This document shows positions 31,899 through 45,990 of a stretch of DNA of 64,000 nt, one piece after another. A model generated the notes under the pieces. It searched no databases. It was not told the origin of the DNA and saw only the letters and a list, made by a program, of their open reading frames with translations. Each line of letters starts with the position of its first letter. The first letter of the stretch is position 1. Position numbers and translations under genes: made by a program. This DNA is from a phage: assembly GCA_010671865.1 (NCBI GenBank), contig GCA_010671865.1_4083.1, one strand, 5' to 3'.

Positions 31899-31934
31899 AG
31901 GGACTCCCTTAAAATTAATATCAATCATATTTTA

Positions 31935-31965
31935 TACGATTCATATAAAAAGTCAATAACATTTT
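31935..31965 (-). promoter_or_regulatory. candidate sigma70-like promoter for the family B array
   Basis: minus strand reads TTGACT-16 nt-TAAAAT just upstream of RBS of 31701..31898; approximate. Confidence 0.35.
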
Positions 31966-32056
31966 ATTCGTAATACCCCTTTATCGAAGTCGCTAAGGTT
32001 ACCCGCCCTTTAGCCCCCTACGCATTTTGCCATAGTCCAATCCCTTTTATTTCAAA

Positions 32057-32125
32057 AAAGTCAAGGGATTACCTATGCATTTTTTTAACGCATAATTTTA
32101 AAAACGCCTTGACTTTTTTCTGAAT
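32057..32125. repeat. imperfect nested palindrome at module boundary
   Basis: GTCAAGG...TATGCAtttttttaacGCATA...CCTTGAC followed by T-run; lies between gene 32148..32357 and the family B array. Confidence 0.4.
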
Positions 32126-32147
32126 CAGTACTAGATCCCTTTACGCA

Positions 32148-32357
32148 TTAATCCTTCGTTACGCTAACGATTATCTGTGTATCCCCGTAGTCCTGCCATA
32201 CTTCCACGCCATCGGTCGCCCTGGTTAGTCGTGCTGTCATCTGCTTAATGGTCTTAGGCTTTAGTGGAACCTGTTGCAGTACTGTACGCATAGCATCATT
32301 GACGTTATCATGTACGCCTGCAATAGTACCTAGAACGCTGTATACTGTATAGAACAT
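32148..32357 (-). CDS. hypothetical protein
   Basis: 69-aa ORF; AGGAGGG RBS 7 nt upstream of ATG. Confidence 0.55.
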   Translation of the reverse strand: MFYTVYSVLGTIAGVHDNVNDAMRTVLQQVPLKPKTIKQMTARLTRATDGVEVWQDYGDTQIIVSVTKD

Positions 32358-32425
32358 ATGTATGCCCTCCTGATATAGTTAAGGCCGCTACAAGGCGGCC
32401 TATGATGTTTGGTGATGTGTAACGC

Positions 32426-32827
32426 TTACAGTCCTAAGATAGTGCGTGCTTCGTTACGTTCCGTACACAGCTGCATGATGTGAGCAAGTAAGTCCTTGCT
32501 AATGTATCCGGTGTTCATAGCTTCACGAATAGATACATCATAAGCACCGAACCCCGTGCGAACGATACGCACATCATTCAGGTTAGTATTATAGATACCG
32601 CCGAGATCAACGGCTTCGAATACTACATCAACAGAATATTCATTGTTGCCATCGTGGAAGTTTTCCAGTGCAATAGTATTGGATACCGCCCAACGTTTGC
32701 AGTTTCCAATGATGCGGCACTGTTCCGGTTGGATAGTACCATTACTTACAGCGTACTCCAGTGCATCTTTACCGAAAGTCCGAGCCAGTACTAAAACGTC
32801 AGCGAAGGAATTGATTGAGAAGGTCAT
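32426..32827 (-). CDS. hypothetical protein
   Basis: track ORF 32426..32860 trimmed to Met with AAGGAG RBS; upstream ATG lies inside the leader hairpin. Confidence 0.55.
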   Translation of the reverse strand: MTFSINSFADVLVLARTFGKDALEYAVSNGTIQPEQCRIIGNCKRWAVSNTIALENFHDGNNEYSVDVVFEAVDLGGIYNTNLNDVRIVRTGFGAYDVSIREAMNTGYISKDLLAHIMQLCTERNEARTILGL

Positions 32828-32839
32828 GATAAAACTCCT

Positions 32840-32912
32840 TAATTTAGGAGGGAGAACCATTTCCCCCTCTCTATGTAAAACATTATACTTGATTCTAAGT
32901 ACTATGCAAGTA
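32840..32912 (-). promoter_or_regulatory. promoter plus 5'-leader hairpin cassette
   Basis: minus strand: TTGCAT-16-TATAAT-GTTTTACAT then hairpin GAGGGGGAAATGGTTCTCCCTCC then AAGGAG RBS; approximate. Confidence 0.5.
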
Positions 32913-32916
32913 CTTT

Positions 32917-33249
32917 TTACATTTTAATACCTGGATTCAGGTAGCGGTGAGATCCATATTCTGGATCGGTTTCGGTCCAGTACTGTAAATCGATAGTACC
33001 TTTCGCGTTAATCTTGTCTACCAGCTTATTCATCTTAGTGTATACTACGTCAGCATCGATGCGTTTAAAGCCAGTAGCTTTAGTGAAGTAGTAGTGATTT
33101 GCTTCACTATCATTAAGGATATACCGAGCACCGTTTGCAGTCTGTGCGATAATGATTGAGTATTCTACTTCCCGATCCAGACCGTCGATGAATACAGATG
33201 AAACATTGGTACGGATGAAAGCTTTAACGATAGCGATTGAAGTACTCAT
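32917..33249 (-). CDS. hypothetical protein
   Basis: 110-aa ORF; AGGAG RBS. Confidence 0.55.
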   Translation of the reverse strand: MSTSIAIVKAFIRTNVSSVFIDGLDREVEYSIIIAQTANGARYILNDSEANHYYFTKATGFKRIDADVVYTKMNKLVDKINAKGTIDLQYWTETDPEYGSHRYLNPGIKM

Positions 33250-33332
33250 TTTGAATCTCCTAACTTTGTGGGCCGTCGCACCATTGCCGCCCTACGAGAT
33301 ACATTATTGCAGTACTGATATACTTTGTCAAT
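33250..33332 (-). promoter_or_regulatory. promoter plus leader hairpin cassette
   Basis: minus strand TTGACA-17-AATAAT then GC-rich hairpin before RBS of 32917..33249; approximate. Confidence 0.45.
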
Positions 33333-33453
33333 ACTTTTTTTATTAATAGTTTTCACCCCACCAGCAGATAGTTACTCACCGTTATTAACTATATATTTTA
33401 GATACACTCCTGCACCCAGTGGGCTAGTTTTTGTCTATGCGTATATAATAGCA

Positions 33454-33487
33454 AAGGGACTGACCGGAGTCAATCCCTTTTTTTATT
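33454..33487 (-). terminator. bidirectional intrinsic terminator (repeated element, copy 1)
   Basis: hairpin AAGGGACTGAC-CGGA-GTCAATCCCTT flanked by A-run and T-run; 17 nt downstream of stop of 33496..33696. Confidence 0.55.
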
Positions 33488-33495
33488 CTTTTTTG

Positions 33496-33696
33496 TTAGA
33501 TGATTCTCCAATCTTCTACGATCATGGTAAGATAACGGACCATCGATTCAAGTGATTCGAATTCCCGATAGTCTGCCGCTCCACCAGCGGTACAAGTACA
33601 GCCGATTAAACCATTTTGTAATTCCTTAATCTGTACATCGATAAGGTTGGCTTTAGCTTCTTTCAGTACTTCAACCAGGGCGAGAGCGATAGACAT
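33496..33696 (-). CDS. hypothetical protein
   Basis: 66-aa ORF; GGAG RBS; own promoter cassette. Confidence 0.55.
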   Translation of the reverse strand: MSIALALVEVLKEAKANLIDVQIKELQNGLIGCTCTAGGAADYREFESLESMVRYLTMIVEDWRII

Positions 33697-33699
33697 AAT

Positions 33700-33780
33700 G
33701 TTTTACTCCAAACTATTGGCGGGAGAACTATTCCCCCGCTCTATGTAAAACATTATACATTACTGGTTAGTACTGTCAAA
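33700..33780 (-). promoter_or_regulatory. promoter plus leader hairpin cassette
   Basis: minus strand TTGACA-16-TATAAT-GTTTTACAT, hairpin GAGCGGGGGAATAGTTCTCCCGCC; approximate. Confidence 0.5.
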
Positions 33781-33786
33781 TAGTTT

Positions 33787-34044
33787 TTATGAAATATCTT
33801 CGATGTAGTCGGCCCATTTCATTTTTTCAGTACTGTCAATGGCTACCGGATTATTTGGATCAAACCATTCACCATTACCGCAATACATACCAACGGCTAC
33901 GGTTTTATAGCCATCCTGGGCAGTACACCACGACATTGCACGATAGATATGGCCTTTAACTGGTTGCAGTACTGGTAACGTTTTATGGTCTTCTACGTAG
34001 GCCATAGCTTGAGGATTTACCCGATATTGTGTGAACTGTTCCAT
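33787..34044 (-). CDS. hypothetical protein
   Basis: 85-aa ORF; AAGGGG RBS. Confidence 0.55.
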   Translation of the reverse strand: MEQFTQYRVNPQAMAYVEDHKTLPVLQPVKGHIYRAMSWCTAQDGYKTVAVGMYCGNGEWFDPNNPVAIDSTEKMKWADYIEDIS

Positions 34045-34120
34045 TATGTTTCCCCTTGTAGTTAGTAAAGTTATTACATCAGTACTATCAAGCTATGTCA
34101 ATAGTACTGAAATAAAACTT

Positions 34121-34345
34121 TTAGATTAGATTATTGAGGCCGTCAATGGTAGACTCACTTTCTTCTTTCTCCCATTGTCGGTAGTACTTCCATGCTTCAT
34201 GATAGGTGGCGATTAGTTCATCTTTTTGATCCTGGTTACATGCCAGTACTGAATCACGGTGAGCGGTGTTATAGATAGAATCGAATGATTTCTTCTCTTC
34301 TGCCAGGTTAGCTACTTCCCGCATCAGTTCATCAAAGTTAGCCAT
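34121..34345 (-). CDS. hypothetical protein
   Basis: 74-aa ORF; AAGGAG RBS. Confidence 0.55.
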   Translation of the reverse strand: MANFDELMREVANLAEEKKSFDSIYNTAHRDSVLACNQDQKDELIATYHEAWKYYRQWEKEESESTIDGLNNLI

Positions 34346-34422
34346 TTTATTACTCCTTTTAGTGGGGGAGGATATATCCCCCTATGCAAAACATTATACT
34401 TTGTTTTAGTTATTATGCAAGT
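34346..34422 (-). promoter_or_regulatory. promoter plus leader hairpin cassette
   Basis: minus strand TTGCAT-16-TATAAT-GTTTTGCAT, hairpin GGGGGATATATCCTCCCCC; approximate. Confidence 0.5.
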
Positions 34423-34676
34423 ACTTTTTTCATATAAACATTATATTCTACACCGCCGTAACCTTCCACGATGATATGTTTTGCGTTATCACGTTTGCAC
34501 ATAGTGAAACCATCGTTTACGTGTTTTGCATTTTCCAGGGCGACATCACCGATAGCGGCACATACTGAACTAATAACGATATTCCGCAAAGTACTGGTAT
34601 CATTAGCGGTCATAGTAGTTTGCAGTACTACGTTGTCGTATACGTGTGCATTGATAGTGATTTCGATAGTGTTCAT
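34413..34676 (-). CDS. hypothetical protein
   Basis: track ORF 34413..34730 trimmed to MNTIEIT; the upstream MFYIERGKWFPL is a translation of the promoter/hairpin cassette. Confidence 0.55.
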   Translation of the reverse strand: MNTIEITINAHVYDNVVLQTTMTANDTSTLRNIVISSVCAAIGDVALENAKHVNDGFTMCKRDNAKHIIVEGYGGVEYNVYMKKVLA

Positions 34677-34758
34677 GGTGTATCTCCTGGACTTGAGGGG
34701 AAACCATTTCCCCCTCTCGATATAAAACATTATACGTTAATCTAACTACAATGCAAGT
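34677..34758 (-). promoter_or_regulatory. promoter plus leader hairpin cassette
   Basis: TTGCAT-16-TATAAT-GTTTTATATC, hairpin GGGGAAATGGTTTCCCC; approximate. Confidence 0.5.
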
Positions 34759-34763
34759 ACTTT

Positions 34764-34955
34764 TTAAATTTTATTTCCGATATAGTCCGGCCTATTCTTT
34801 TCGGTCATACGCTTTGCTAATGTTTGCATATAGCTTATCGCGTTTAAGGTGTCTTCCTCCAGGGATGAATCAACATAATCAGGATCATTCTTCACCTTGC
34901 AATGATTATGATAGCGTAGTACTGCCAGTACTTTTTTAACTTCTTCAACTGTCAT
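34764..34955 (-). CDS. hypothetical protein
   Basis: 63-aa ORF; ATGA overlap with upstream gene. Confidence 0.5.
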   Translation of the reverse strand: MTVEEVKKVLAVLRYHNHCKVKNDPDYVDSSLEEDTLNAISYMQTLAKRMTEKNRPDYIGNKI

Positions 34956-35224
34956 AATAAGTATTCCACTTCGTTAGCTTTCAGGTTAGTATCAATCATC
35001 AGTGGTTTTTTGTAGTCCACAAAACGATTAGTTTTCTCGATAGCGAAGCCCATATAATCCAGCTTGCTTACAGTACATTCATTCTTAAAAACTTCTTTCG
35101 CGGCATTGATGGCTGATTCAATTGATAACCGACCATCTAAGTTAATGTTACCAAATGATCCACCAGCAGAAGTAGGATTACCGTTCATATCTTTAATAAT
35201 CATAGTAGCGGAGTAGCTGGACAT
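34952..35224 (-). CDS. hypothetical protein
   Basis: 90-aa ORF; AAGGAAAC RBS. Confidence 0.55.
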   Translation of the reverse strand: MSSYSATMIIKDMNGNPTSAGGSFGNINLDGRLSIESAINAAKEVFKNECTVSKLDYMGFAIEKTNRFVDYKKPLMIDTNLKANEVEYLL

Positions 35225-35308
35225 AATTTTGTTTCCTTTTATTGGTGGGGAGAACTATTCTCCCCCTTGATGTAAACTATTATACAGTACTGATATACTT
35301 TGTCAATA
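35225..35308 (-). promoter_or_regulatory. promoter plus leader hairpin cassette
   Basis: TTGACA-16-TATAAT, hairpin GGGGGAGAATAGTTCTCCCCACC; approximate. Confidence 0.5.
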
Positions 35309-35309
35309 C

Positions 35310-35531
35310 TTAATTACGGATAAAGTGATAAAGACCATTATCATCATTAACGCCCCATACTGATTTACCATTTAAACCAGTGAAGCCGGATTGCAATTCA
35401 ATATGGAAACCGTTAGCATCAACGACGAAAACTTTTTTATTTTCATCCCGATAGCATTGATATTCTTCACCTGCTTTAAATGCTGCATCATTCAGAAGAT
35501 TTGAAGCGTGAACGCAGGTCATAGTAGCCAT
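35310..35531 (-). CDS. hypothetical protein
   Basis: track ORF 35310..35588 trimmed to MATMTCVHAS (AAGGAA RBS); upstream part is cassette read-through. Confidence 0.55.
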   Translation of the reverse strand: MATMTCVHASNLLNDAAFKAGEEYQCYRDENKKVFVVDANGFHIELQSGFTGLNGKSVWGVNDDNGLYHFIRN

Positions 35532-35616
35532 CGTCTTGATTCCTTTTAGTACCAGGGGGAACCATTTCCCCCTCTCGATATAAAACATTATACGCTCATT
35601 GAGATAGTTTGCAAGT
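35532..35616 (-). promoter_or_regulatory. promoter plus leader hairpin cassette
   Basis: TTGCAA-17-TATAAT-GTTTTATATC, hairpin GGGGGAAATGGTTCCCCC; approximate. Confidence 0.5.
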
Positions 35617-35717
35617 ACTTTTTATCAAATAGTTTTCAGTACTGAATACTTATATAATAGATACACTTCCGCACCCTATGGGTCAGTGAGTTATCTCTCA
35701 ATGAATATATAATAGCA

Positions 35718-35748
35718 AAGGGACTGACTGGAGTCAATCCCTTTTTTA
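35718..35748 (-). terminator. bidirectional intrinsic terminator (repeated element, copy 2)
   Basis: hairpin AAGGGACTGACTGGAGTCAATCCCTT plus T-run; just downstream of stop of 35756..36340. Confidence 0.55.
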
Positions 35749-35755
35749 ATCTTTT

Positions 35756-36340
35756 TTATCGTGTTATAGTTATCGCGTTAACATCACGTTTTTTATAGTA
35801 CTGATTCCAGATATTGCGGGTTAAACCGTAATCAAGTACTTTAATCAAGCCGTTGCGATCCTGGCCGATATTCTGTTTTCTGATATCTCTTATCGTTAGT
35901 GTGGATAATGTATCATCAACGTGATTGAGAGCATCAGCGAAATGGTGTTGGCGTTCTACCGTATTACGTTTAATATTGTACTTTAACTCATTGCACGCGT
36001 TTACATGCTTTACACTGCCTTTGCTTGCAGTACTCAAACGATCCATAACAATAAACAGATTATCAGGATCGCATAAATGCATATGCACCTTGGCAAAGAA
36101 CTGTTTAAGGTGCGGACGGTCATAATCTAAAAAATTCCATACCTTACATTCAGTTTCATTTTGTTCTACACCCGCATCACAATTCGCGACCTTAATCACT
36201 AACCGATCATTTAAAGCGAATACAATACGGGAAGAACCCGCACCGACGATCTCCAGTCCAGCTAACCGACAAGCTGAAAGGATCTCTTTGTTGGTTTCCA
36301 TTGCATGAAGTGAACGGATGAATTTAGTATAGTTACGCAT
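35756..36340 (-). CDS. putative protein kinase-like protein
   Basis: trimmed to MRNYTKF (AAGGAG RBS); motifs in canonical order: Gly-rich GAGSSRIVF, VIKV, catalytic-loop-like IRDIRKQN, DFG-like LDYG. Confidence 0.4.
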   Translation of the reverse strand: MRNYTKFIRSLHAMETNKEILSACRLAGLEIVGAGSSRIVFALNDRLVIKVANCDAGVEQNETECKVWNFLDYDRPHLKQFFAKVHMHLCDPDNLFIVMDRLSTASKGSVKHVNACNELKYNIKRNTVERQHHFADALNHVDDTLSTLTIRDIRKQNIGQDRNGLIKVLDYGLTRNIWNQYYKKRDVNAITITR

Positions 36341-36371
36341 TGTGTTGACTCCTTGAGTTAATGAAACTATA

Positions 36372-36614
36372 TTACAGTACTTTACTATCAATGGCAACTA
36401 CTTTTTTTACTTGAACTGCGTGGAATACTTCACGCGTATTTTTAGTACTGAATACTTTTGCCGTACCTTGTTCGACCGCAATACGATATCGACCGTTAAC
36501 GTCCACCATGTTGATAAAGTCCGGTGTACTGAATGGAGTTACCCGGCATTTAAGAACGGTTAACAGTTCCACCAGCGTTGTAGTCTCTTTGATACGTTTT
36601 TCTAAAGTAATCAT
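36372..36614 (-). CDS. hypothetical protein
   Basis: track ORF 36372..36671 trimmed to MITLEKR; upstream MTVLKCFSTMYAYQ is promoter read-through. Confidence 0.5.
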   Translation of the reverse strand: MITLEKRIKETTTLVELLTVLKCRVTPFSTPDFINMVDVNGRYRIAVEQGTAKVFSTKNTREVFHAVQVKKVVAIDSKVL

Positions 36615-36671
36615 TTTGTTTTCCCCGTGTTGGTATGCGTACATAGTACTAAAACATTTGAGTACTGTCAA

Positions 36672-36890
36672 TTAGATAATAGAATATTTCTTTAGTGATA
36701 ATGCGTCTTCTGTCGGTTGATATTCTACACCGTTCCCGTTATCAACCTTAGTGAGTAAACCTTTATCAATGAGTTTTTTGATGGTACGGTTTCCCTGTTG
36801 AAAACTGGTGAAGTGTGAATCATTACGAAAGGTATAACCGTGCTTCACTGCTTCATCAATAGTTTTCTTTTCGATTTTAGATAATTTCAT
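36672..36890 (-). CDS. hypothetical protein
   Basis: track ORF 36672..36950 trimmed to MKLSKIEK; same promoter type as 36372..36614. Confidence 0.5.
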   Translation of the reverse strand: MKLSKIEKKTIDEAVKHGYTFRNDSHFTSFQQGNRTIKKLIDKGLLTKVDNGNGVEYQPTEDALSLKKYSII

Positions 36891-36946
36891 TTTGTTTCTC
36901 TCTCTGTGTTGGTATAGATACATAATACTAAAACAATTGAGTACTG

Positions 36947-37201
36947 TCAACGTGATATTAGTTTTATTTTTTTATTGTATTGTTGGTGTTCATATAGATT
37001 AATTTTTCCAGTACTCTCAATTACTATTCTATTGTTAGTGTCTACATCGATAACACGTAGTTTCCCGTTGCTTAACTTCCTGGGTAATAGACTACCATTA
37101 ATAAACTCATTAGCAAGCTGTACGGCCTTTGTGATGATTCTCTGTGGTGCTTTATAGTGTACCCGCAAGATATTATCTTTAGATAGTTGTACCTTCATCA
37201 T
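36947..37201 (-). CDS. hypothetical protein
   Basis: 84-aa ORF. Confidence 0.5.
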   Translation of the reverse strand: MMKVQLSKDNILRVHYKAPQRIITKAVQLANEFINGSLLPRKLSNGKLRVIDVDTNNRIVIESTGKINLYEHQQYNKKIKLISR

Positions 37202-37214
37202 TTTAGTTTATCCT

Positions 37215-37243
37215 ATAAAAAAAGGCGGGAACTGAACCCGCCG
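37215..37243 (-). terminator. intrinsic terminator
   Basis: minus strand GGCGGGTTCAGTTCCCGCC hairpin followed by TTTTTTT; downstream of 37266..37661. Confidence 0.6.
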
Positions 37244-37265
37244 TGTTGTTAGTACTGCAAAGTTT

Positions 37266-37661
37266 TTAGATAACCTGGCGGCGTTTACTGTATACTGTTA
37301 CACGGTTTCCTTTACGGTCATGACGGATCTCTTTCTGGTTACGAATCAGTTCACTTGGACGCTTAAGGTTTGCCAGGTGATCCGCGTGAGTCCATGCATT
37401 TGCGTTAACTGTAACTTCAATATCAGAACCTTTCAAAAAGTCATCTTGAGCGTTCAGTACTTCAGCCAGTTCTTGAGCTTGCTTTAGTTCTGCTTCAGTA
37501 AGTACAGGCTCAGGTGAATTCACAATATCAGAGATCTCTTTGAACTGTACCGCCCAGCGTTGTCCTTTCGGTGCATCTTTGCCCATGTCTTTAAATGTTT
37601 CACCTTCTTCACGAGCAACGATGCGAGCTTGTTCACGGGTAGCGAAGAATTTAGTAATCAT
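37266..37661 (-). CDS. hypothetical protein (paralog of 49170..49436)
   Basis: track ORF trimmed to MITKFFATREQ; shares FATREQARI...FKDMG...DRKGNRVTVY with 49170..49436. Confidence 0.55.
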   Translation of the reverse strand: MITKFFATREQARIVAREEGETFKDMGKDAPKGQRWAVQFKEISDIVNSPEPVLTEAELKQAQELAEVLNAQDDFLKGSDIEVTVNANAWTHADHLANLKRPSELIRNQKEIRHDRKGNRVTVYSKRRQVI

Positions 37662-37760
37662 GGTGTACATCCTATTAGTTAAGTTAATTAGTACTACAAG
37701 TTAGAGTCTATTATAAAGTACTATCTGGGCAATGTCAAATAGTACTTTAAATGGATTCTA

Positions 37761-38084
37761 TTACATGTCTTTTTTACGTTTTACATCGTAGTAACGAACT
37801 GTAATTTCTTTGTTGATCTCATCCTCAATTCTGTGTAGTACTTTCTCTTTCGGGTTGAAACCTATTACAGTTTCTTTAATGATCTCCAAGCCCGTGTATT
37901 CGCCTTGTGTACCGTAACCGTAAGTAAAGGTTTCATGTCCCAGGTCTTCCCAGCGGTCACCAATCAATGCAGACACGTAGCATGAGTGGTAAGTATTGCC
38001 GTGGCTATCAGTCCACCGATTAACTTTAATGTCAAAGGAAGTTACAATTTTCATTTCTACTTTCTGGGCAAGGATCATAGTCAT
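37761..38084 (-). CDS. hypothetical protein (paralog of 43890..44213)
   Basis: 107-aa ORF; shares RWTDSHGNTYHSC...FTYGY...RKKD with 43890..44213. Confidence 0.6.
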   Translation of the reverse strand: MTMILAQKVEMKIVTSFDIKVNRWTDSHGNTYHSCYVSALIGDRWEDLGHETFTYGYGTQGEYTGLEIIKETVIGFNPKEKVLHRIEDEINKEITVRYYDVKRKKDM

Positions 38085-38170
38085 TTTAATTTCTCTCTTT
38101 TTGTTAGGAAGGGAACCATTCCCCTCACTTGATGTAAACTATTATACAGTACTAAGATACTTTGTCAATA
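38085..38170 (-). promoter_or_regulatory. promoter plus leader hairpin cassette
   Basis: TTGACA-16-TATAAT, hairpin GGGGAATGGTTCCC; approximate. Confidence 0.5.
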
Positions 38171-38171
38171 C

Positions 38172-38447
38172 TTAAGTATTGTAAATGTCGTGAATAGTGA
38201 TAAAGTTTTTACGACCGTAAACATGTAAATCAGTATCAATGTAGTGCTTATCAAGTACATCCTCGACGCTTAAAGCCGTGTCGTGAATATCTTCATAGAA
38301 TTGTGGATCTACAATCTTACTTAAATCATCCGGCGTTAACTTATCATTGAGCCATTGCACCGCCTGGATATCTGCATCACGTTTCCAGTCTTCCAGGTTA
38401 GTAGTCAGTACTTGCTCGATTTCGTTAGCTGTCAGTAGAATCCGCAT
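38172..38447 (-). CDS. hypothetical protein
   Basis: 91-aa ORF. Confidence 0.55.
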   Translation of the reverse strand: MRILLTANEIEQVLTTNLEDWKRDADIQAVQWLNDKLTPDDLSKIVDPQFYEDIHDTALSVEDVLDKHYIDTDLHVYGRKNFITIHDIYNT

Positions 38448-38528
38448 TTTAATTTCTCTCTTTGTTAGGTGGGGAACTATTCCCCACTTGATGTAAAATA
38501 TTATACAGTACTAAAAACTATTGTCAAA
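38448..38528 (-). promoter_or_regulatory. promoter plus leader hairpin cassette
   Basis: TTGACA-16-TATAAT, hairpin GTGGGGAATAGTTCCCCAC; approximate. Confidence 0.5.
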
Positions 38529-38536
38529 CTATTTTA

Positions 38537-38737
38537 TCAAATTGTTTCCCATTTCATGTTACCCGCTTTACGCTGTGAAACAGGAATAAACATGTTATTA
38601 ATGTTACTAATATAACCGACCTGTAAGTCACGCTGTGAACCATACGCCCGACTTGCTGCATTTTTAGCACCGCGTTCTGATTTATAAACGCCGCTGGATA
38701 CTGTAAAGCCTACTACACCGAAAGTAAAATGTTTCAT
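38537..38737 (-). CDS. hypothetical protein
   Basis: 66-aa ORF; long leader with tandem promoters. Confidence 0.5.
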   Translation of the reverse strand: MKHFTFGVVGFTVSSGVYKSERGAKNAASRAYGSQRDLQVGYISNINNMFIPVSQRKAGNMKWETI

Positions 38738-39020
38738 TTTGTATTCCTCTTTGTGGTTGATGTAAGTATTATACTCGTTTAATTTCTATTGTCAAACTAT
38801 TTTATCAGGGGAGGTTTTCGTATGTCTTACTCCTGGACTACTTAACGGGGTTACTTATTTCGTTCCCCGTCCTGATGTAAAACATTATACTTGATTCTAA
38901 GTACAATGCAAGTACTTTTTAAAAATAGTTTTCAGTACTTGATAGTACTAGCCACCAGCAAACAATAGATACATTTATGCACCCTGTGGGCTGATTTGTT
39001 TCTATGCGTATATAATAGCA

Positions 39021-39049
39021 AAGGGACTGACCGGAGTCAATCCCTTTTT
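39021..39049 (-). terminator. bidirectional intrinsic terminator (repeated element, copy 3)
   Basis: hairpin AAGGGACTGACCGGAGTCAATCCCTT plus T-run. Confidence 0.55.
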
Positions 39050-39058
39050 CAATTATTT

Positions 39059-39208
39059 TTAAACTTGTTTCGGGTTGCGATAGGTGATAGCGTTCGGGTA
39101 CATTTGTTTAATGTTATTCCATGCCTGGTTAACATTGTAACCACTTGAGCGAATCAGTTGGTTACTACCGACACCTTGAAACACTACTTCGAATAAGAAT
39201 TCTTTCAT
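39059..39208 (-). CDS. hypothetical small protein (49 aa)
   Basis: hand-translated MKEFLFEVVFQGVGSNQLIRSSGYNVNQAWNNIKQMYPNAITYRNPKQV; GAGGTG RBS; approximate. Confidence 0.4.
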   Translation of the reverse strand: MKEFLFEVVFQGVGSNQLIRSSGYNVNQAWNNIKQMYPNAITYRNPKQV

Positions 39209-39378
39209 GCTTTCACCTCGCTATCTGCTTTACCTTTACGCCAGGACATTACTAATTGTTCGCGTTGCCATAAGTCGAGTGATACAAAAAGTTTTGCGGT
39301 ATCACTTTTAGGATACTCGCCAGTAGTACCTAACCGATAAAACAGATCTTTCAGTACTGATAATTCTACTTGAATCAT
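39205..39378 (-). CDS. hypothetical small protein (57 aa)
   Basis: hand-translated MIQVELSVLKDLFYRLGTTGEYPKSDTAKLFVSLDLWQREQLVMSWRKGKADSEVKA; AGGAG RBS; ATGA overlap downstream; approximate. Confidence 0.4.
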   Translation of the reverse strand: MIQVELSVLKDLFYRLGTTGEYPKSDTAKLFVSLDLWQREQLVMSWRKGKADSEVKA

Positions 39379-39467
39379 TTTATTACTCCTGATTGCGTTA
39401 ATACTTCTACTATTGCATGAATGATCATAAGTACAGCTAAAACAATAATCATCGGATTCATTTGCAT
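39375..39467 (-). CDS. hypothetical small hydrophobic peptide (~30 aa)
   Basis: rough hand translation MQMNPMIIVLAVLMIIHAIVEVLTQSGVIK; AGGAG RBS; coordinates and sequence approximate. Confidence 0.3.
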   Translation of the reverse strand: MQMNPMIIVLAVLMIIHAIVEVLTQSGVIK

Positions 39468-39484
39468 AAGCTGTACTCCTTATA

Positions 39485-39697
39485 TTAATCTTTCAGCCAA
39501 TGATCCTGAATGAATTTTTCGCCGGAACCTTGCTGCATTGATTGTAACAGACGTTCACGATGAGCGGCGGCGAATTGCTCAGTACTATGCGTTACGCCAG
39601 GCTGATAACGTGATACCCCATCCGGTCCGATGTATTGTACATCCCACGGTTTTTCGTTAGTATCAGACCATTTACGAACGATTAGTTGACCTTGCAT
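39485..39697 (-). CDS. hypothetical protein
   Basis: 70-aa ORF; GAGGAAAG RBS. Confidence 0.55.
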   Translation of the reverse strand: MQGQLIVRKWSDTNEKPWDVQYIGPDGVSRYQPGVTHSTEQFAAAHRERLLQSMQQGSGEKFIQDHWLKD

Positions 39698-39775
39698 TTT
39701 TCTTTCCTCTCAGTGGGGAGAATCATTTCTCCCCTTCATGTAACTTATTATACAGTACTAGATTATCTTGTCAAT
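39698..39775 (-). promoter_or_regulatory. promoter plus leader hairpin cassette
   Basis: TTGACA-16-TATAAT, hairpin GGGGAGAAATGATTCTCCCC; approximate. Confidence 0.5.
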
Positions 39776-39780
39776 AGTTT

Positions 39781-40104
39781 TTATTCACCTTGTTTGAATT
39801 TAGTTTTCTCCATTGATTCCATGATTGCAACCAATACGCTGTGGATCTCGCTTAACGCGGAATCACTGAAAGCATTAATGAATAGTCGATCATTCTCGCG
39901 AATATTTTTAATGTACTTTTCAGCAGTAGTTGCGAATTCATTCAACGGTAGATCAAATGCTTTATCCCATGATGGATGGCGTAATTGTAACAGTACTGGA
40001 TTATCACGATCACCAGGGGAAAACGTACCAGTGATGAAACATACGCCCGGAATACTTTCGAACTGGCAACGGACTTCCTTTGTGATAGTAGTATGAATGT
40101 ACAT
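39781..40104 (-). CDS. hypothetical protein
   Basis: 107-aa ORF; GAGGA RBS. Confidence 0.55.
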   Translation of the reverse strand: MYIHTTITKEVRCQFESIPGVCFITGTFSPGDRDNPVLLQLRHPSWDKAFDLPLNEFATTAEKYIKNIRENDRLFINAFSDSALSEIHSVLVAIMESMEKTKFKQGE

Positions 40105-40131
40105 TTATTGTTATCCTCTATTAAATTAATA

Positions 40132-40326
40132 TTACAGTTTATGAATCAATTCTTTATCTAAGCGATAGCGTACATTATTAATAGTAACGGCATTGTTTTT
40201 AATGCTACGCTGTACAGGTCCACCAGCAATAACAAATGTTGCTTTATTACCCCGAACAATGATAGCACTTCCAGGATTACCGAAATCATCTTGTACTAAA
40301 ATACTTGATAAGTTTTCCATTTTCAT
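40132..40326 (-). CDS. hypothetical protein
   Basis: 64-aa ORF; true start may be the second Met (MENLSS) by RBS spacing. Confidence 0.5.
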   Translation of the reverse strand: MKMENLSSILVQDDFGNPGSAIIVRGNKATFVIAGGPVQRSIKNNAVTINNVRYRLDKELIHKL

Positions 40327-40401
40327 TTCCTCTTAGTAGGGGAAGATGTTTCCCCTTGATGTAAGTACTATAACACTACTGGATAGTACTGTCAATACTT
40401 T

Positions 40402-40659
40402 TTATCTCATAGATCTATGCCAACAATTACGCGGGGGACGTTTAAAAGTACTATCATGATCCTCCTGGCAAGTTATGCAGTACTTACATCCCTTAACAGC
40501 CCGGCGGCGATTCTCAGGGATTTTATCGCCACAGTCGAGGCAATGTATCAGTGATTCTATTTGTGCGTTAATTTGCTTTCTAGCGTGGTTTACGGCGGCC
40601 TGAATCACTGCGTTAATCTCGTCTTGTTCGGCCCCGTCTTTCGCGAATCCTACAGCCAT
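40402..40659 (-). CDS. DksA/TraR-family C4 zinc-finger protein
   Basis: 85-aa ORF with C-x2-C-x17-C-x2-C and hallmark CLDCGDKIPENRRRAVKG...CITCQ. Confidence 0.6.
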   Translation of the reverse strand: MAVGFAKDGAEQDEINAVIQAAVNHARKQINAQIESLIHCLDCGDKIPENRRRAVKGCKYCITCQEDHDSTFKRPPRNCWHRSMR

Positions 40660-40856
40660 TATTTTAACCTTTTTCTATCATTAATTAATGCTTTCAGTAC
40701 TATACTAATAACTTGCAATGATTCATCAATGACTATAAAATTATTTTCTTTCATTAGATGATAGTTACCATTGATATTATATTCTAACGAGTACTGTTTA
40801 CGTTTAATTTTTGATAATGTTTCTATTTGTTTTTGTACTGATTTCATGCTAATCAT
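40659..40856 (-). CDS. hypothetical protein
   Basis: 65-aa ORF; 1-nt stop/start overlap with 40402..40659. Confidence 0.5.
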   Translation of the reverse strand: MISMKSVQKQIETLSKIKRKQYSLEYNINGNYHLMKENNFIVIDESLQVISIVLKALINDRKRLK

Positions 40857-40961
40857 TGTTAAACGTCCTGTAACGCATTCTAACGAGATAAACGGTTTAG
40901 TACTGGCATTGTATAGGGTAATGAATTAAAGCCCACCAGCGTTAACCAGTGGGCTATAATC

Positions 40962-41105
40962 TTACATCTTGCGGATAATCTTAACAGTATCTTTCACCGA
41001 TTTACCGTTTTGCTGACATTGTTCGATCATCGCGTATTGTTCTGCGGTCAGATCCTCGCCAGTTTTTGCCAGTACTGCATCGATGAATGAATCTAGTGCG
41101 ATCAT
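40962..41105 (-). CDS. hypothetical small protein (~47 aa)
   Basis: rough hand translation MIALDSFIDAVLAKTGEDLTAEQYAMIEQCQQNGKSVKDTVKIIRKM; approximate. Confidence 0.3.
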   Translation of the reverse strand: MIALDSFIDAVLAKTGEDLTAEQYAMIEQCQQNGKSVKDTVKIIRKM

Positions 41106-41204
41106 TTTGTTTCTCTCTTAGGTTAAGTTAACTACTGTTTATAAAACTTATTATACAGTACTATCAAACTATGTCAATATCTTTAATAGTACTGGTAATA
41201 TATT

Positions 41205-41447
41205 TTAGCGGTAGTCGTCGTATGCTTTATTCACCTGTCGAATGTAACTTTCAAAGGCTTCGTCTACCGTTTCATACTCCCGAACATAATCACCATAGGA
41301 AACTACATACATCCCTTTTTGATCTTCAAACGTCATGATGATAGAATCCAGGCCGATGATTTCAGTTTTTGCGATGATAGCCATTTTTAATTCCTTAGTA
41401 GTGTAGTTGATAAAACTTATTATGCCAGTACTATCAATCTTTGTCAA
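41205..41447 (-). CDS. hypothetical protein
   Basis: 80-aa ORF; promoter TTGACA-17-CATAAT without hairpin. Confidence 0.55.
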   Translation of the reverse strand: MTKIDSTGIISFINYTTKELKMAIIAKTEIIGLDSIIMTFEDQKGMYVVSYGDYVREYETVDEAFESYIRQVNKAYDDYR

Positions 41448-41466
41448 TAGTACTGTGATAATATTT

Positions 41467-41679
41467 TTAGTTAATGATAGTCAGTGTAAAATTGTAATCC
41501 CCTGCCTGGTATAGTACTTTGTCGCCGAACGTACCAACACGTTTCATATTGCAATAGATACCCATAACACTTTTTACATCTTTGATATTCCGAACGCCAG
41601 TGATATCCTTGTTGAAATTTTCATGATCAGAAAATAAAACTTGTTTTGCATTTTTCAGTACAGTGCAGATATTAGCCAT
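41467..41679 (-). CDS. hypothetical protein
   Basis: 70-aa ORF. Confidence 0.55.
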   Translation of the reverse strand: MANICTVLKNAKQVLFSDHENFNKDITGVRNIKDVKSVMGIYCNMKRVGTFGDKVLYQAGDYNFTLTIIN

Positions 41680-41762
41680 TTTGTTTTCTCTTTGTTAGTG
41701 GGGAGAATCATTTCTCCCCTTCATGTAACTTATTATACAGTACTATAATCTATTGTCAAACT
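41680..41762 (-). promoter_or_regulatory. promoter plus leader hairpin cassette
   Basis: TTGACA-16-TATAAT, hairpin GGGGAGAAATGATTCTCCCC; approximate. Confidence 0.5.
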
Positions 41763-41773
41763 ATTTTTTAATA

Positions 41774-42115
41774 TTATTCAAAATCTTCTGGACCGGACTG
41801 ATAATCATCTTCACCGTATGCACTTTCTAACTTCTCGCCAGTGTGATCATCAGTTAGTGAGTCATCCTCATAGTTCACGTCTACGCCTACAATGTAAAAC
41901 TGGCTATCGTCTGGATCATTGAAATTAATTTTCTGAATGTTTACAATAACGGTATTGATGCCCAGGACACCGCCATCAGCAGTTACAAAGTACTGATAGT
42001 TTTCACAACCGCCTGAATTGAAACCGTAATTAATTTCGGCCCGACCATCATTTAAACGCAGTACCTGGGCGATGATTTCGTTTTCAAAGTTAGATTGAGC
42101 AATTGAGATAGTCAT
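41774..42115 (-). CDS. hypothetical protein (acidic C-terminus)
   Basis: 113-aa ORF; C-terminal DDHTGEKLESAYGEDDYQSGPEDFE. Confidence 0.55.
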   Translation of the reverse strand: MTISIAQSNFENEIIAQVLRLNDGRAEINYGFNSGGCENYQYFVTADGGVLGINTVIVNIQKINFNDPDDSQFYIVGVDVNYEDDSLTDDHTGEKLESAYGEDDYQSGPEDFE

Positions 42116-42200
42116 GATTCGTTTCCTTATTACCAGGGGAAACCATTTCCCCTTGCGATGTAAAACATTATACGCTTATTGAGATAGTTTGCAAGTACTT
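42116..42200 (-). promoter_or_regulatory. promoter plus leader hairpin cassette
   Basis: TTGCAA-16-TATAAT-GTTTTACATC, hairpin GGGGAAATGGTTTCCCC, then TGGTAATAAGGAAAC RBS; approximate. Confidence 0.5.
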
Positions 42201-42296
42201 TTTAAAAATAGTTTTCAGTACTCAATACTTATATAATAGATACACTTATGCACCCTGTGGGCTAGTGAGCTATCTCTCAATGAATATATAATAGCA

Positions 42297-42327
42297 AAAT
42301 GGCTGACCGGAGTCAACCACTTTTTTT
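42297..42327 (-). terminator. bidirectional intrinsic terminator (repeated element, copy 4, with compensatory stem changes)
   Basis: hairpin TGGCTGAC-CGGA-GTCAACCA plus T-run; stem differs from copies 1-3 by paired substitutions. Confidence 0.55.
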
Positions 42328-42464
42328 CATTTATTTTTAGCTTTTAGAATCGCCGCCTTTCGTGTCATTCCTTGTTTGATGTACTCCTTTACTTTCGCTT
42401 TACGTGCTTTCGCTTTATCTGCTTTCGTTTTAGGAGTACTGTAAATTATACCGTTAGGATTCAT
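42327..42464 (-). CDS. hypothetical small lysine-rich basic protein (45 aa)
   Basis: hand-translated codon by codon: MNPNGIIYSTPKTKADKAKARKAKVKEYIKQGMTRKAAILKAKNK; approximate coordinates. Confidence 0.4.
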   Translation of the reverse strand: MNPNGIIYSTPKTKADKAKARKAKVKEYIKQGMTRKAAILKAKNK

Positions 42465-42554
42465 TTAAATCACCATAAAGAATAGATAGGTTACTAACAA
42501 TGCCGCGATCAATGCACCGACCAGGGCCGAACTGTAATAAGCCAATGATTTCAT
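42465..42554 (-). CDS. hypothetical small hydrophobic peptide (~29 aa)
   Basis: rough hand translation MKSLAYYSSALVGALIAALLVTYLFFMVI; ATGA overlap with upstream ORF; approximate. Confidence 0.3.
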   Translation of the reverse strand: MKSLAYYSSALVGALIAALLVTYLFFMVI

Positions 42555-42703
42555 TTTTTAGCCTGAAAATAGTGTTTAATTTGAGCGGCGGTCAGTGCAC
42601 AATTACGCAGGAAGTTTTCTGTATAACTGCGTCGAGTACTGAAAGAAAATTGACCTTTGCCGTTACCGATAGTAACATCAAACCGAGCATTATATTGTTT
42701 CAT
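42551..42703 (-). CDS. hypothetical small protein (~50 aa)
   Basis: rough hand translation MKQYNARFDVTIGNGKGQFSF...; AGGAG RBS; approximate. Confidence 0.35.
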   Translation of the reverse strand: MKQYNARFDVTIGNGKGQFSFSTRRSYTENFLRNCALTAAQIKHYFQAKK

Positions 42704-42817
42704 TTTGTTTCTCCTGATAGTGGGGAGTACTATTTCTCCCCTTCATGTAAAACATTATACAGTACTGAAAACTAATTGCAAGTATTATTTTTTAGATTTA
42801 CGCAAACTTTCTACCAT

Positions 42818-42931
42818 CTCAGGAGTAAGGCCCGGCGGGTAGGAAACCACTTCATCAACGAAACGTAAAGGGAATACCCCAGCGAAAGGTGAACATGCTT
42901 TCTTAGTATTACTCTTTTTTGATGCTTTCAT
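42818..42931 (-). CDS. hypothetical small protein (~37 aa)
   Basis: hand-translated MKASKKSNTKKACSPFAGVFPLRFVDEVVSLPAGPYS; AAGGAA RBS; own promoter/hairpin; approximate. Confidence 0.3.
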
Positions 42932-43000
42932 TTCATATTCCTTAATTAGTGGGGAGTACTATTTCTCCCCTTCATGTAAAACATTATACAGTACTGAAAA

Positions 43001-43210
43001 CTAATTGCAAGTACTATTTGAAAGTAAATGCTCATACGCTGCATTAACTACATTTTCAATAACCGACTGTACAGAAAGATCCCCCACGTCCTGGCTATAG
43101 TAGAAATTGCTTACAGTGGTGTCATCGTATGCAAATACTTTACCAGGTACGGCATCAATCACATACATATTAACCTTTAAGATGTCGATCTTATCCTGTA
43201 CAGTAAGCAT
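43001..43210 (-). CDS. hypothetical protein
   Basis: 69-aa ORF. Confidence 0.55.
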   Translation of the reverse strand: MLTVQDKIDILKVNMYVIDAVPGKVFAYDDTTVSNFYYSQDVGDLSVQSVIENVVNAAYEHLLSNSTCN

Positions 43211-43215
43211 ATTAA

Positions 43216-43488
43216 TTAACCTTTTAAGTACTGGCTTAAGTAGTCTTTTTGTTCTTCGGTGATTGCAGTCATCTTCCCTAGTACTGGATTGATGATATAA
43301 TCCCCTGTAACGTCCTGTACTGCGTTTTCAGGCTGTTTAACGGCAGGGGTAGCCATAGCCATAGCCTGGACTTGTTCCACACTGTAACGCTCATAAAGGC
43401 GGCATTCTTCCGGTGTTAACATAGCATCAGTACGCTTCATCGGTTTAATGATGCTTTCGATCTCATTCAGTACTTGATTAACGTTCAT
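43216..43488 (-). CDS. hypothetical protein
   Basis: 90-aa ORF. Confidence 0.55.
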   Translation of the reverse strand: MNVNQVLNEIESIIKPMKRTDAMLTPEECRLYERYSVEQVQAMAMATPAVKQPENAVQDVTGDYIINPVLGKMTAITEEQKDYLSQYLKG

Positions 43489-43539
43489 GGTATAATCCCC
43501 AATATAAGCGGCCTAAATCGACCGCTAACGATGTTTTGA

Positions 43540-43809
43540 TTAATAGGTGTATGGTTGACGCTCAAACAATGATTGTACGCTGTACGCCCCGCTAATGGGC
43601 TTCGCTGGTAAATCAATTTTATATTGCTCACGCTTAAAGATAATAAAACGGCAATTGTTTTTAACATCAAAATTGATTGAACGTTCCAGGAGTTTACCAT
43701 CGTGAACAAATACAAGATAACCACTTGGTACTTGTTTTGTAGTACTGGTTGCAACCATAGACCGACGAACATGTGTACCTGCATCGATTAAAGTACTGAT
43801 ATTTTTCAT
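43540..43809 (-). CDS. hypothetical protein
   Basis: 89-aa ORF; preferred over overlapping alternative frame 43485..43784. Confidence 0.5.
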   Translation of the reverse strand: MKNISTLIDAGTHVRRSMVATSTTKQVPSGYLVFVHDGKLLERSINFDVKNNCRFIIFKREQYKIDLPAKPISGAYSVQSLFERQPYTY

Positions 43810-43889
43810 TTTACTTTCCTCTTAAGTTGATTTAATTTCTTTCCCCTATGCAGACACTATATCAAAGTATCTGCATAAAGTAAAGCTAA

Positions 43890-44213
43890 TTAAAGATCTT
43901 TTTTGCGTTTAACATTCTGTACAGTACAATGCAACGGGATATTAAGATCATTGCACAAACGATAGAGGGAGGTTTCAACAGTATCAAGCCCGTCTACTGA
44001 TTCCTTTAAGAGTGATACCGCCGTTTGTTGATATGCATCCTCATAGCCATAAGTAAATGATTCAACCGCCAGATCATTCAAGCCGTTATCCAGTTCAACG
44101 CTTACATGACAAGAATGATAAGTATTGCCATATGAATCAGTCCAACGTTTACCGTCAACATTGATTGCATGGATTGCAGCCAGGGAAACGGTGTTGATGA
44201 TAGTTTTAGCCAT
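43890..44213 (-). CDS. hypothetical protein (paralog of 37761..38084)
   Basis: 107-aa ORF; shares RWTDSYGNTYHSC...FTYGY...KRKKDL. Confidence 0.6.
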   Translation of the reverse strand: MAKTIINTVSLAAIHAINVDGKRWTDSYGNTYHSCHVSVELDNGLNDLAVESFTYGYEDAYQQTAVSLLKESVDGLDTVETSLYRLCNDLNIPLHCTVQNVKRKKDL

Positions 44214-44299
44214 TTTAGTATTCCTTAAATTAATATGTGTCGTCTTGATAAAATCTATTATGCCAGTACTATCAAACTATGTCAATAGTACTGTGATAA

Positions 44300-44448
44300 T
44301 ATTTTTTACTTACTTTTTGCTTTCTTTGCTGCTTCCACCTGGTCGGCCCATTCTTTACCCCATACTTGTAAATTATAATGGTACTGGCAAAGTGCAACGC
44401 CCCGCTTTAAACCCGTAATAGATTTCTGACCACATTGACAAGTTTTCA
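44300..44448 (-). CDS. hypothetical small Cys-containing protein (~47 aa)
   Basis: rough hand translation MKTCQCGQKSITGLKRGVALCQYHYNLQVWGKEWADQVEAAKKAKSK; approximate. Confidence 0.3.
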
Positions 44449-44534
44449 TATTAGTTTCCTTGTAGTGGGGAGAATCATTTCTCCCCTTGATGTAATGTAT
44501 TATACTTTATTCGATTTACTTTGCAAGTACTTTT

Positions 44535-44762
44535 TTAATTTAATTCATCCAGGCAAAGGATACGTTCCACACCAAGATCCGTTAAACTAATGGTCGGTAC
44601 TTGATAGGTTTCAATGTATGCTACACTTGCCCACTGACCGAACTCATTAACGGCCCAGGTATTCATTGCATTTTGCAATTCCACACCTTCCTTGTTGGTA
44701 ATGACTGCAACTACTTGTTCGTTGCCAGTAGTACCAGATACGCGAGTAATGATAATAGCCAT
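44535..44762 (-). CDS. hypothetical protein
   Basis: 75-aa ORF; promoter TTGACA-17-CATAAT. Confidence 0.55.
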   Translation of the reverse strand: MAIIITRVSGTTGNEQVVAVITNKEGVELQNAMNTWAVNEFGQWASVAYIETYQVPTISLTDLGVERILCLDELN

Positions 44763-44837
44763 TTTTTAATTCCTATTCAGTAGTTGATGTATGTATTATG
44801 TCAGTACTTAAAACTATTGTCAAACTATTTTTTAAAG

Positions 44838-44985
44838 TTTATCAATGATTGATGCCGTTTCATTGATAGTCTTGCCGTGTTTTGCACACGCGATAACTGC
44901 TTTAAATTCCTTTGATGACCAATCTTTCTTGCTGCATACTGACATTACTTGTAAAGTAAAACAATCCAGTTCATAAGTATTCATC
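44838..44985 (-). CDS. hypothetical small protein (~49 aa)
   Basis: rough hand translation MNTYELDCFTLQVMSVCSKKDWSSKEFKAVIACAKHGKTINETASIIDKL; approximate. Confidence 0.3.
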
Positions 44986-45209
44986 TTTAAATCCTCAGTT
45001 AGTTAAGGTGTCTCGCCTTGATGTAATTAATTATACGCTAATCTCTTAATCGTGCAAGTACTTTTTATTACTTTTTGCAAAATACTTTAAACGCTCTCAA
45101 TCGCATTCTAACGGCCTTCACGCCACCAGCTAGGGCAATGCATCAGATAATCAGTTTAATGCGTTAGAATCGATTCTATCGGGTGCTAGTGGACTGGTAA
45201 ACGATAGAT

Positions 45210-45238: not shown

Positions 45239-45259
45239 AGTGATTCAGTACTTTAATTG

Positions 45260-45973: not shown

Positions 45974-45990
45974 AGTGATTCAGTACTATA

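Follow-up and report, generated by a model that had tools for sequence, protein, structure and literature searches.

Bacterial Rho-independent terminators of the bidirectional type consist of a hairpin that is followed by a U-tract and preceded by a complementary A-tract. They are found on the sense strand of intergenic regions after a stop codon, and their loop comprises 3-10 nt. Other described elements with related features are located near the ends of phage genomes. [quoted passage not shown] At the concatemer junction of phages T7 and T3, a transcription stop or pause occurs inside the terminal repeat near the right end, beside specific cut sites. T7 uses its own polymerase, a class II signal without a hairpin and a repeat of 160 bp, and the polymerase paused in the terminal repeat recruits packaging proteins (PMC3276506). 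The cos site of phage lambda (cosQ-cosN-cosB) generates 12-nt cohesive ends and is a conserved region across the cut which contains blocks at fixed spacing.

The window analysed here, a DNA stretch of 64,000 nt, belongs to an Asteriusvirus jumbo coliphage of the G17/Sharanji/PBECO4 group. It is 99.9% identical to G17 and Sharanji over 2.5 kb and is also related to PBECO4 and 121Q. A preliminary description had pointed to a long nested palindrome, GTCAAGG..CCTTGAC followed by a T-run, and had placed it between the stop of the gene at 32148..32357 and the promoter of an array of paralogous genes. The palindrome could be confirmed, with the T-run being part of its right arm. Its position was also correct, but the first gene of the array has its annotated start at 31898, not at 31928. 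The features around the palindrome, which is close to one end of a direct terminal repeat (DTR), are as follows, with coordinates referring to the window.

32148..32357, minus strand: last gene of the DTR, an ORF of 69 aa (phrog_17833; annotated as G17_00614/G17_00001)
32127..32132, minus strand: AGTACT motif, 8 nt upstream of the A-run that opens the extended stem
32107..32119, minus strand: 5′ arm of the RNA hairpin (AAAAAAGUCAAGG on the transcript), from repeat search and fold
32073..32095, minus strand: nested inner hairpin (UUAUGCGUU-AAAAA-AAUGCAUAG on the transcript, 9 pairs including G-U), from the fold
32065..32081, minus strand: conserved block AAUGCAUAGGUAAUCCC, just 5′ of box 2, from cross-lineage alignment
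32054..32066, minus strand: 3′ arm and U-tract (CCUUGAC UUUUUU), which is box 2 of the DTR-end module, from repeat search and fold
32030..32043, minus strand: conserved block GGAUUGGACUAUGG, found as (T/A)TGGACTATG, with a constant distance to the cut, in nearly all lineages
31996..32013, minus strand: cut-proximal block CUAAAGGGCGGGUAACCU, the last bases of the DTR (majority fraction 0.79)
31991..31996, no strand: inner DTR boundary, predicted physical genome end, with the cut between 31995 and 31996 as placed by the ends of six records
31956..31929, minus strand: sigma-70-like promoter of the paralogue array (TTGACT-16-TAAAAT), 40-67 nt outside the DTR
51887..51896, no strand: other DTR boundary, predicted left end of the genome, with the cut between 51891 and 51892

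The palindrome is formed by two inverted arms at 32054-32066 (AAAAAAGTCAAGG) and 32107-32119 (CCTTGACTTTTTT; both given for the plus strand), which were found by a repeat search, have 13 nt each and are 100% complementary. They are separated by 40 nt, the whole element comprising 66 nt (32054-32119). The T-run of the right arm is matched by an A-run in the left arm (A6/T6 inside the 13-nt arms). The inner pair TATGC/GCATA was also confirmed (32074-32078 and 32090-32094, with 11 nt between). Perfect inverted repeats with arms of at least 13 nt, at most 60 nt apart, occur twice in the window versus an expectation of 0.1 (first-order Markov random sequences, n=100, maximum 1). When the window was searched for the arm motif, the two arms were the only matches. 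All genes near the palindrome are on the minus strand and thus the relevant transcript reads from 32119 to 32054. On this transcript, the outer stem GUCAAGG/CCUUGAC is extended by A6/U6, and the inner stem pairs 32073-32081 with 32087-32095. The minus-strand RNA of the palindrome folds with -23.8 kcal/mol (z = -4.1; equalled by none of 200 shuffles) and its core hairpin of 54 nt with -15.9 kcal/mol, while the plus-strand fold is less stable (-17.6 kcal/mol, z = -3.05).

Ranked by strength, the palindrome is third among the minus-strand candidates of the window that have a hairpin plus U-tract and are fully intergenic. It was missed by a simple terminator scan of the window and by the ARNold annotations of G17 and GAP32. 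None of the 4227 Rfam families, all of which were searched, reached its gathering threshold, the best match being bglG-cis-reg with 28.4 bits versus 80. The palindrome begins 29 nt after the stop codon of the 69-aa gene (TAA, 32148-32150), and the non-coding stretch from this gene to the DTR end has 152 nt. The promoter of the paralogue array follows about 100 nt downstream of the palindrome on the transcript. It is kept in all Asteriusvirus relatives, including PBECO4 and BF17 with their different downstream gene. Pfam and PHROGs assign the flanking genes only to families without assigned function, and thus do not provide a candidate for a binding protein. The TTGACT of either arm was considered as a promoter element and rejected, as an acceptable -10 box at 16-18 nt is absent on both strands; the sole promoter-scan match near the arms is weak (9/12, 32124..32095). 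A G+C-rich hairpin without U-run, GGCCGCC..GGCGGCC, is located between the last two DTR genes (32382-32401), and the annotation of GAP32 has a terminator at the equivalent place.

The element shares with bidirectional Rho-independent terminators the hairpin on the sense strand, the complementary 5′ A-tract and the intergenic location after a stop codon. Its U-rich tract is flush with the stem (CCUUGAC then UUUUUUG). However, it does not have a compact G+C-rich stem with a short loop: the 7-bp core contains 4 G-C pairs, and the interior of 40 nt contains the nested hairpin where other terminators have a loop of 3-10 nt. It also differs from them in that the sequence of its 3′ arm is conserved across phage genera at a near-fixed distance from a cut site.

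Terminators and promoters of recurrent design are found throughout the DTR. It is full of sigma-70-type promoters of two repeated designs, TTGACA-N9-AGTACTG-TATAAT and AAAAAGTAC-TTGCAA-N16-TATAAT. The core of the second design (AAGTACTTGCA) occurs in 15 copies between 32905 and 50309 (0.04 expected), all of them on the minus strand and inside the DTR. Where examined, the full early-promoter repeat has about 45 nt (AAAAAGTACTTGCAAACTATGTTTAAAGGCGTATAATGTTTTAC). The last core copy, at about 32915, heads the unit that ends at the palindrome. Four terminators (47461, 45973, 45238, 37242) are compact, GC-rich and have AGTACT exactly 8 nt before the stem. In addition, there are four terminator-promoter cassettes A7-GGGATTGACTCCGGTCAGTCCC-TTTGCTATTAT on the minus strand (33456-33477, 35720-35741, 39023-39044, 42299-42320). 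Located between early DTR genes, they follow the pattern of an A-run, GGGATTGAC..GTCAGTCCC and a T-run (A7-GGGATTGACTCCGGTCAGTCCC-TTT), and one of them has been annotated as a terminator in G17 via ARNold. The 5′ arm of the cassettes doubles as the -35 box (TTGACT) of a promoter with TATTAT as -10 box, the terminator thus overlapping the next promoter. The palindrome joins the traits of both terminator types, as it has AGTACT 8 nt before its A-run and GTCAA/TTGAC arms that are flanked by an A-run and a T-run. While the cassettes are compact, with a 9-bp stem, a 4-nt loop and TTGAC in the 5′ arm, the palindrome has TTGAC in its 3′ arm and no usable -10 box after it.

The palindromic hexamer AGTACT occurs 258 times in the window, compared to about 22 from a rough composition estimate, and TCAGTACT occurs 94 times (2.7 expected). 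AGTACT is dense at 32000-58000 and is also found at 1-16000 and 24000-27000, but there are no copies in 18000-24000 or 28000-32000. ORFs contain 63% of the sites, while the paralogue arrays have none. Intergenic copies are associated with early promoters, either beside the -35 box or just before the -10 box, and are found 8 nt before terminators. Relatives from other genera also have AGTACT, both behind the last gene of the DTR and at the left end of the genome.

The ends of the DTR could be placed with the help of related genomes. Six records (G17, WPEC3, CRJP21, E9.1, vB_Ec-M-J and fEgEco12) have coinciding ends, AGGTTACCCGCC..., which correspond to position 31996 of the window, and the annotated DTR end of vB_Ec-M-J falls inside the intergenic region of the palindrome. 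The termini of fEgEco12 have been established by PhageTerm and restriction digests (PMC13070987), the terminal repeat of G17 was recognized by doubled read coverage (PMC6563267), and that of Sharanji was called by PhageTerm (PMC11895373). On the other side, the ends of the vB_Ec-M-J, CRJP21 and G17 records map to position 51891, with a mirrored TAG(T/C)GG just outside. Judged by its sequence identity to these relatives with coincident record ends, the window probably carries one collapsed copy of a DTR of about 19.9 kb (31996..51891), the left end reading inward on the minus strand. The palindrome is located 58-123 nt inside the inner DTR boundary, and in the virion it would be at the same distance from the right physical DNA end. 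It is this location, 58 bases from the predicted physical end of the genome and within a conserved end module, that makes the palindrome matter.

Immediately outside the DTR at the inner boundary, there is a conserved TAGCG (CGCTA on the plus strand). The outside flanks of the two boundaries mirror each other, with ..C(G/A)CTA^ on the left and ^TAGC(G/C) on the right (^ denoting the cut), and this was found in the window, in Klebsiella phage fENko-Kae01 (Kae01) and in Pectobacterium phage CBB, three genera for which the ends have been determined independently. In the relatives' loci, the mirrored flanks are at about 795-805 (L019), 1058-1068 (L024), 195-205 (L045) and 196-206 (L046). Such flanks would fit a single site-specific nuclease that cuts both boundaries in opposite orientation. 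They would also fit staggered nicks followed by fill-in synthesis.

A few further observations concern the genome ends. An ORF-poor stretch (50300-52150) spans the left end and contains many copies of AGTACT and short repeats of the TGATTAC type. A small hairpin, GGCAGA..TCTGCC (51871-51887), is only 4 nt from the left end, and in Kae01 there is a hairpin at the extreme left end (TATCTTCT..AGAAGATA). In vB_Ec-M-J and BF17, an extra A is found at the internal junction (CGCTAAAGG versus CGCTAAGG; L008 at about 663-675, L006 at about 653-665); the right-end copy in vB_Ec-M-J still begins with AGG.

Homologues of the 69-aa gene were detected by tblastn in 69 phage records. Many of them are about 17-25 kb from the record start, which fits the position of a last DTR gene. 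In most of the related genera that were sampled, the homologue marks the inner DTR end, and in most of the sampled lineages it is followed by a non-coding tail of 145-165 nt which ends with ..CT^TAGC. For Kae01 this junction is the repeat end determined by PhageTerm, and for CBB the repeat was defined by read depth, with its end at 22456. The record of Erwinia phage Hallingskeid begins 152 nt from the gene, as does that of G17. In GAP32, XbC2, Serratia phage BF, Yersinia phage fHe-Yen9-03 and eight IMG/VR contigs, the tail was read from the sequence. RaK2 is an exception, as its homologue directly abuts another ORF and the module is missing. Sampling of IMG/VR yielded 3 loci in a protein-anchored scan and 14 loci with a DNA pattern across the cut site, two of the latter (L035, L036) being chance matches in coding sequence.

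Relative to the cut, the alignment of the tails is gapless from about -125 to +5, a fixed spacing of blocks as expected of a cos- or pac-like site. Box 2 (TTGAC/TTAAC plus T-run) begins 68-71 nt before the cut in 20 of 20 lineages from at least five genera, with 69 nt in most of them, and its mean majority fraction is 0.78. The majority fraction is 0.72-0.79 in the non-coding tail, 0.65 at the position of the 5′ arm and only 0.52 at the end of the adjacent gene. A string of 21 nt (AAAATGCATAGGTAATCCCTT) is identical between the window and CBB. Conservation runs past the cut, through TAGCG and then GGGGTAT..TATTAC. Altogether, the DTR-end module extends from about 125 nt inside the cut to 35 nt beyond it, with near-fixed spacing. 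Asteriusvirus, Mimasvirus, Eneladusvirus and unclassified relatives have in common the hairpin, box 2, TTGGACTATG and AAGGCCAGTAAyGCT^TAGCG. In Mimasvirus and Eneladusvirus there is a second, direct copy of the box (box 1, CTTGACTTTT) 28 nt upstream of box 2, and in most related lineages AGTACT follows the stop codon of the homologous gene. A G-quadruplex was considered for the G-rich terminal block and rejected, as the G-runs are absent in Kae01 and other genera. At the sequence level, the module resembles the lambda cos site in being a conserved region of about 160-200 bp across the cut, with internal blocks at fixed spacing. The differences are that no IHF site was found and that there are long direct repeats instead of 12-nt cohesive ends. 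In the papers on these phages that were consulted, we found no description of the DTR-end module.

Within Asteriusvirus, the cut site and the palindrome do not have the same distribution. The boundary sequence CGAAGTCGCT^AAGGTTACCCGC is retained even in Turkey5 and EJP2 (about 70% identity overall). It is also retained in PBECO4 and BF17, in which the DNA farther out than about 10 nt from the cut is unrelated, the -35 region of the promoter excepted. These two phages have an unrelated 366-nt gene outside the DTR boundary and no paralogue array (L005, L006 at about 530-660), and thus the repeat boundary is a breakpoint of gene content as well. The arms of the palindrome are present in most Asteriusvirus genomes but absent in Turkey5 and EJP2. 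EJP2 carries a different hairpin instead of the palindrome (AAGUACUGUA..UGCAGUACUU, then UUUAAUUUGU). In Turkey5, a tandem duplication contains two weak AUGCAU hairpins, each followed by U6. The duplication comprises about 70 nt in the tail after the last DTR gene (L003, about 662-890); a second cut-site core (CCTTAGCG) is located 64 nt upstream of the conserved one and replaces the palindrome and box 2. In the MJ/TH47/WPEC3 group, the inner hairpin is reduced to 5 pairs and the U-tract to 4 U.

Relatives from at least five genera keep a hairpin on the sense strand; its 5′ arms differ in sequence and are nevertheless complementary to their own 3′ halves, and the other genera have different inner hairpins. 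As their registers differ between genera, the helices could not be counted in one column-wise consensus structure. Selection on the hairpin was therefore approached by a comparison of sense and antisense folds and by chimeras with swapped halves. The sense fold is better than the antisense fold in 15 of 20 lineages (mean z -3.17 versus -2.02). This difference is due to the use of G-U pairs and is large where there are many of them. Native combinations of 5′ and 3′ halves have a mean of -17.7 kcal/mol, versus -11.3 kcal/mol in chimeras with a swapped 5′ half (Wilcoxon p = 0.001). At most one chimera, usually that with the closest relative, equals the native pair in 12 of 18 lineages, and a thirteenth (L041) has three such chimeras. 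As the lineages are related and not independent, these fold and chimera statistics are only indicative. A significant hairpin is lacking in 5 of the 18-20 lineages (CBB, Yen9-03, L031, L038 and L044), and in several others the main stem stops 6-12 nt short of the U-run. In most lineages, the variable 5′ half is adapted to the 3′ half with which it occurs, which points to a hairpin that acts as a folded single strand, most simply as RNA.

We consider it fairly probable that the palindrome is an intrinsic, factor-independent terminator of the last early transcription unit of the DTR. This reading is favoured by the geometry of the element, its strand asymmetry, the co-adapted arms, the terminator grammar of the phage itself and the replacement hairpins, as Turkey5 and EJP2 have other hairpin-plus-U-run elements at the same place. 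A sense-strand hairpin, a U-tract, an intergenic location after a stop codon and a position ahead of the next promoter are all present while the compact stem is not, and thus the palindrome most likely works as a terminator of unusual shape, a function that would be an ordinary one. The non-canonical hairpin and the possibility that the U-tract pairs with the A-run are counterpoints to this. For the related jumbo phage PA5oct, DTR genes have been described as early and dependent on the host polymerase (PMC7318152). In the phage analysed here, host RNA polymerase, which presumably transcribes the unit, would initiate at the last early promoter core (about 32915) and would transcribe a 144-aa gene and then the 69-aa gene. 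The long nested hairpin would form 29 nt past the stop codon and the RNA would be released at the U-tract directly after it. Early DTR transcription would thereby be prevented, in the left DTR copy, from running into the paralogue array, whose own promoter is 100 nt further on, and in the right copy the polymerase would be halted 58 nt before the DNA end.

The preliminary description had left a choice between a complex terminator, an attenuator and an operator that controls entry into the array. The terminator is best supported among these, though indirectly, by geometry, by the phage's own terminator grammar and by the co-adapted hairpins of relatives. Attenuation finds no support, as the alternative pairings that were found (32135-32144 with 32060-32069; 32039-32046 with 32063-32070) end at the same U-run or need later sequence and lack conservation beyond the genus. 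An operator or activator site, by which a phage early protein would control the promoter of the paralogue array, is very unlikely even though the element has dyad symmetry and is upstream of this promoter. The arms are 53 bp apart from centre to centre, the centre of the palindrome is about 130-165 bp upstream of the start site, and the arm sequence has no further copy in the window. Moreover, the promoter is conserved in Turkey5, EJP2, PBECO4 and BF17, while the arms are missing in Turkey5 and EJP2, the latter having an unrelated hairpin instead, and other genera keep the module despite an unrelated downstream gene.

Termination alone leaves unexplained why the sequence of the 3′ arm is conserved and has a near-fixed distance to the cut, and we thus infer an overlapping role at the DNA level which is related to the terminus. 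The DNA sequence of the 3′ arm is probably constrained by this second function, with the 5′ arm evolving to stay complementary. It is a tentative proposal that the nested hairpin and its conserved 3′ arm take part in the machinery by which Rak2-like jumbo phages make their 20-kb terminal repeats. They would be either a protein recognition block or a mark for pausing or termination of transcription, and the cut would occur about 69 nt downstream at ..CT^TAGCG, mirrored as CGCTA^.. at the other repeat boundary. The recognition block could take the form of two inverted TTGACTTTT boxes for a terminase small subunit or a partner of it, comparable to repeated binding sites in lambda cosB or T7/T3 pacB; the boxes would position the enzyme to cut 58-69 nt away, and any RNA hairpin would be a by-product. 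We regard this as doubtful. It would account for the gapless spacing of 68-71 nt from box 2 to the cut across 20 lineages and at least five genera, for a non-coding tail that is more conserved than the adjacent gene end (0.72-0.79 versus 0.52), for the direct second copy (box 1) in Mimasvirus and Eneladusvirus and for conservation across the cut, and the spacer holds A-tracts. However, Turkey5 keeps the cut-site block without having the arms and box 2, which hints that the boxes may not be required, and box 2 drifts (TTAAC, TTACA, TTCAT). Divergent but co-adapted 5′ arms with G-U pairs on the sense strand are not predicted by recognition of double-stranded DNA, and no consensus sites for IHF (WATCARNNNNTTR), DnaA or Fis are found in 31940-32160.

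Coupling of transcription and terminus formation as in T7, where a polymerase that pauses or terminates at the hairpin would mark the DTR end for cleavage, is improbable. It would bring together the sense-strand RNA structure and the near-fixed distance to the cut, and the recruitment of packaging proteins by a paused T7 polymerase is a precedent, the resemblance being that of a candidate transcription stop or pause inside the terminal repeat near the right end, beside specific cut sites. The evidence is purely positional, though, and five lineages are without a strong hairpin. T7 has its own polymerase and a signal without a hairpin, whereas here the repeat has 20 kb and host polymerase is presumed. 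The early promoters would need to be active at the time of packaging. We give hardly any credence to a T5-like injection stop, by which the DNA would stop entering at the inner end of the left repeat until the early proteins of the DTR have been made. The element does share with the T5 iss its relative position, near the inner end of the left terminal repeat, and is likewise palindromic, conserved and non-coding, and the DTR is packed with sigma-70-type early promoters. However, it has 66 nt within a non-coding tail of 152 nt, versus the T5 region of >1 kb, and lacks a large repeat region. No DnaA box (TTWTNCACA or relaxed) occurs in 31940-32160, compared to eight in T5, and there is no report of a two-step transfer for these phages. 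For T7 concatemer processing, hairpin-primed duplication of the repeat has been proposed. By analogy, the palindrome might be a hairpin primer or processing intermediate for duplication of the terminal repeat, which we consider similarly remote. It is near the repeat boundary and the mirrored CGCTA^..^TAGCG would fit staggered nicks and fill-in, but it is inside the repeat, 58 nt from the cut, has an interior of 40 nt, and no equivalent element is found at the same distance inside the other boundary.

In summary, the element itself is likely ordinary in function, and it is located in a conserved DTR-end module for which the consulted papers give no description. If the palindrome is a terminator, it shows annotators where the last early unit of the DTR ends, by an element whose shape is missed by standard finders. 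The conserved module allows the exact repeat boundary to be read from the sequence alone, and thus the true ends could be placed on the many records which have arbitrary starts. For the jumbo phages which share it, the module provides a concrete target for mutation if one asks how phages cut and duplicate direct terminal repeats of such great length.
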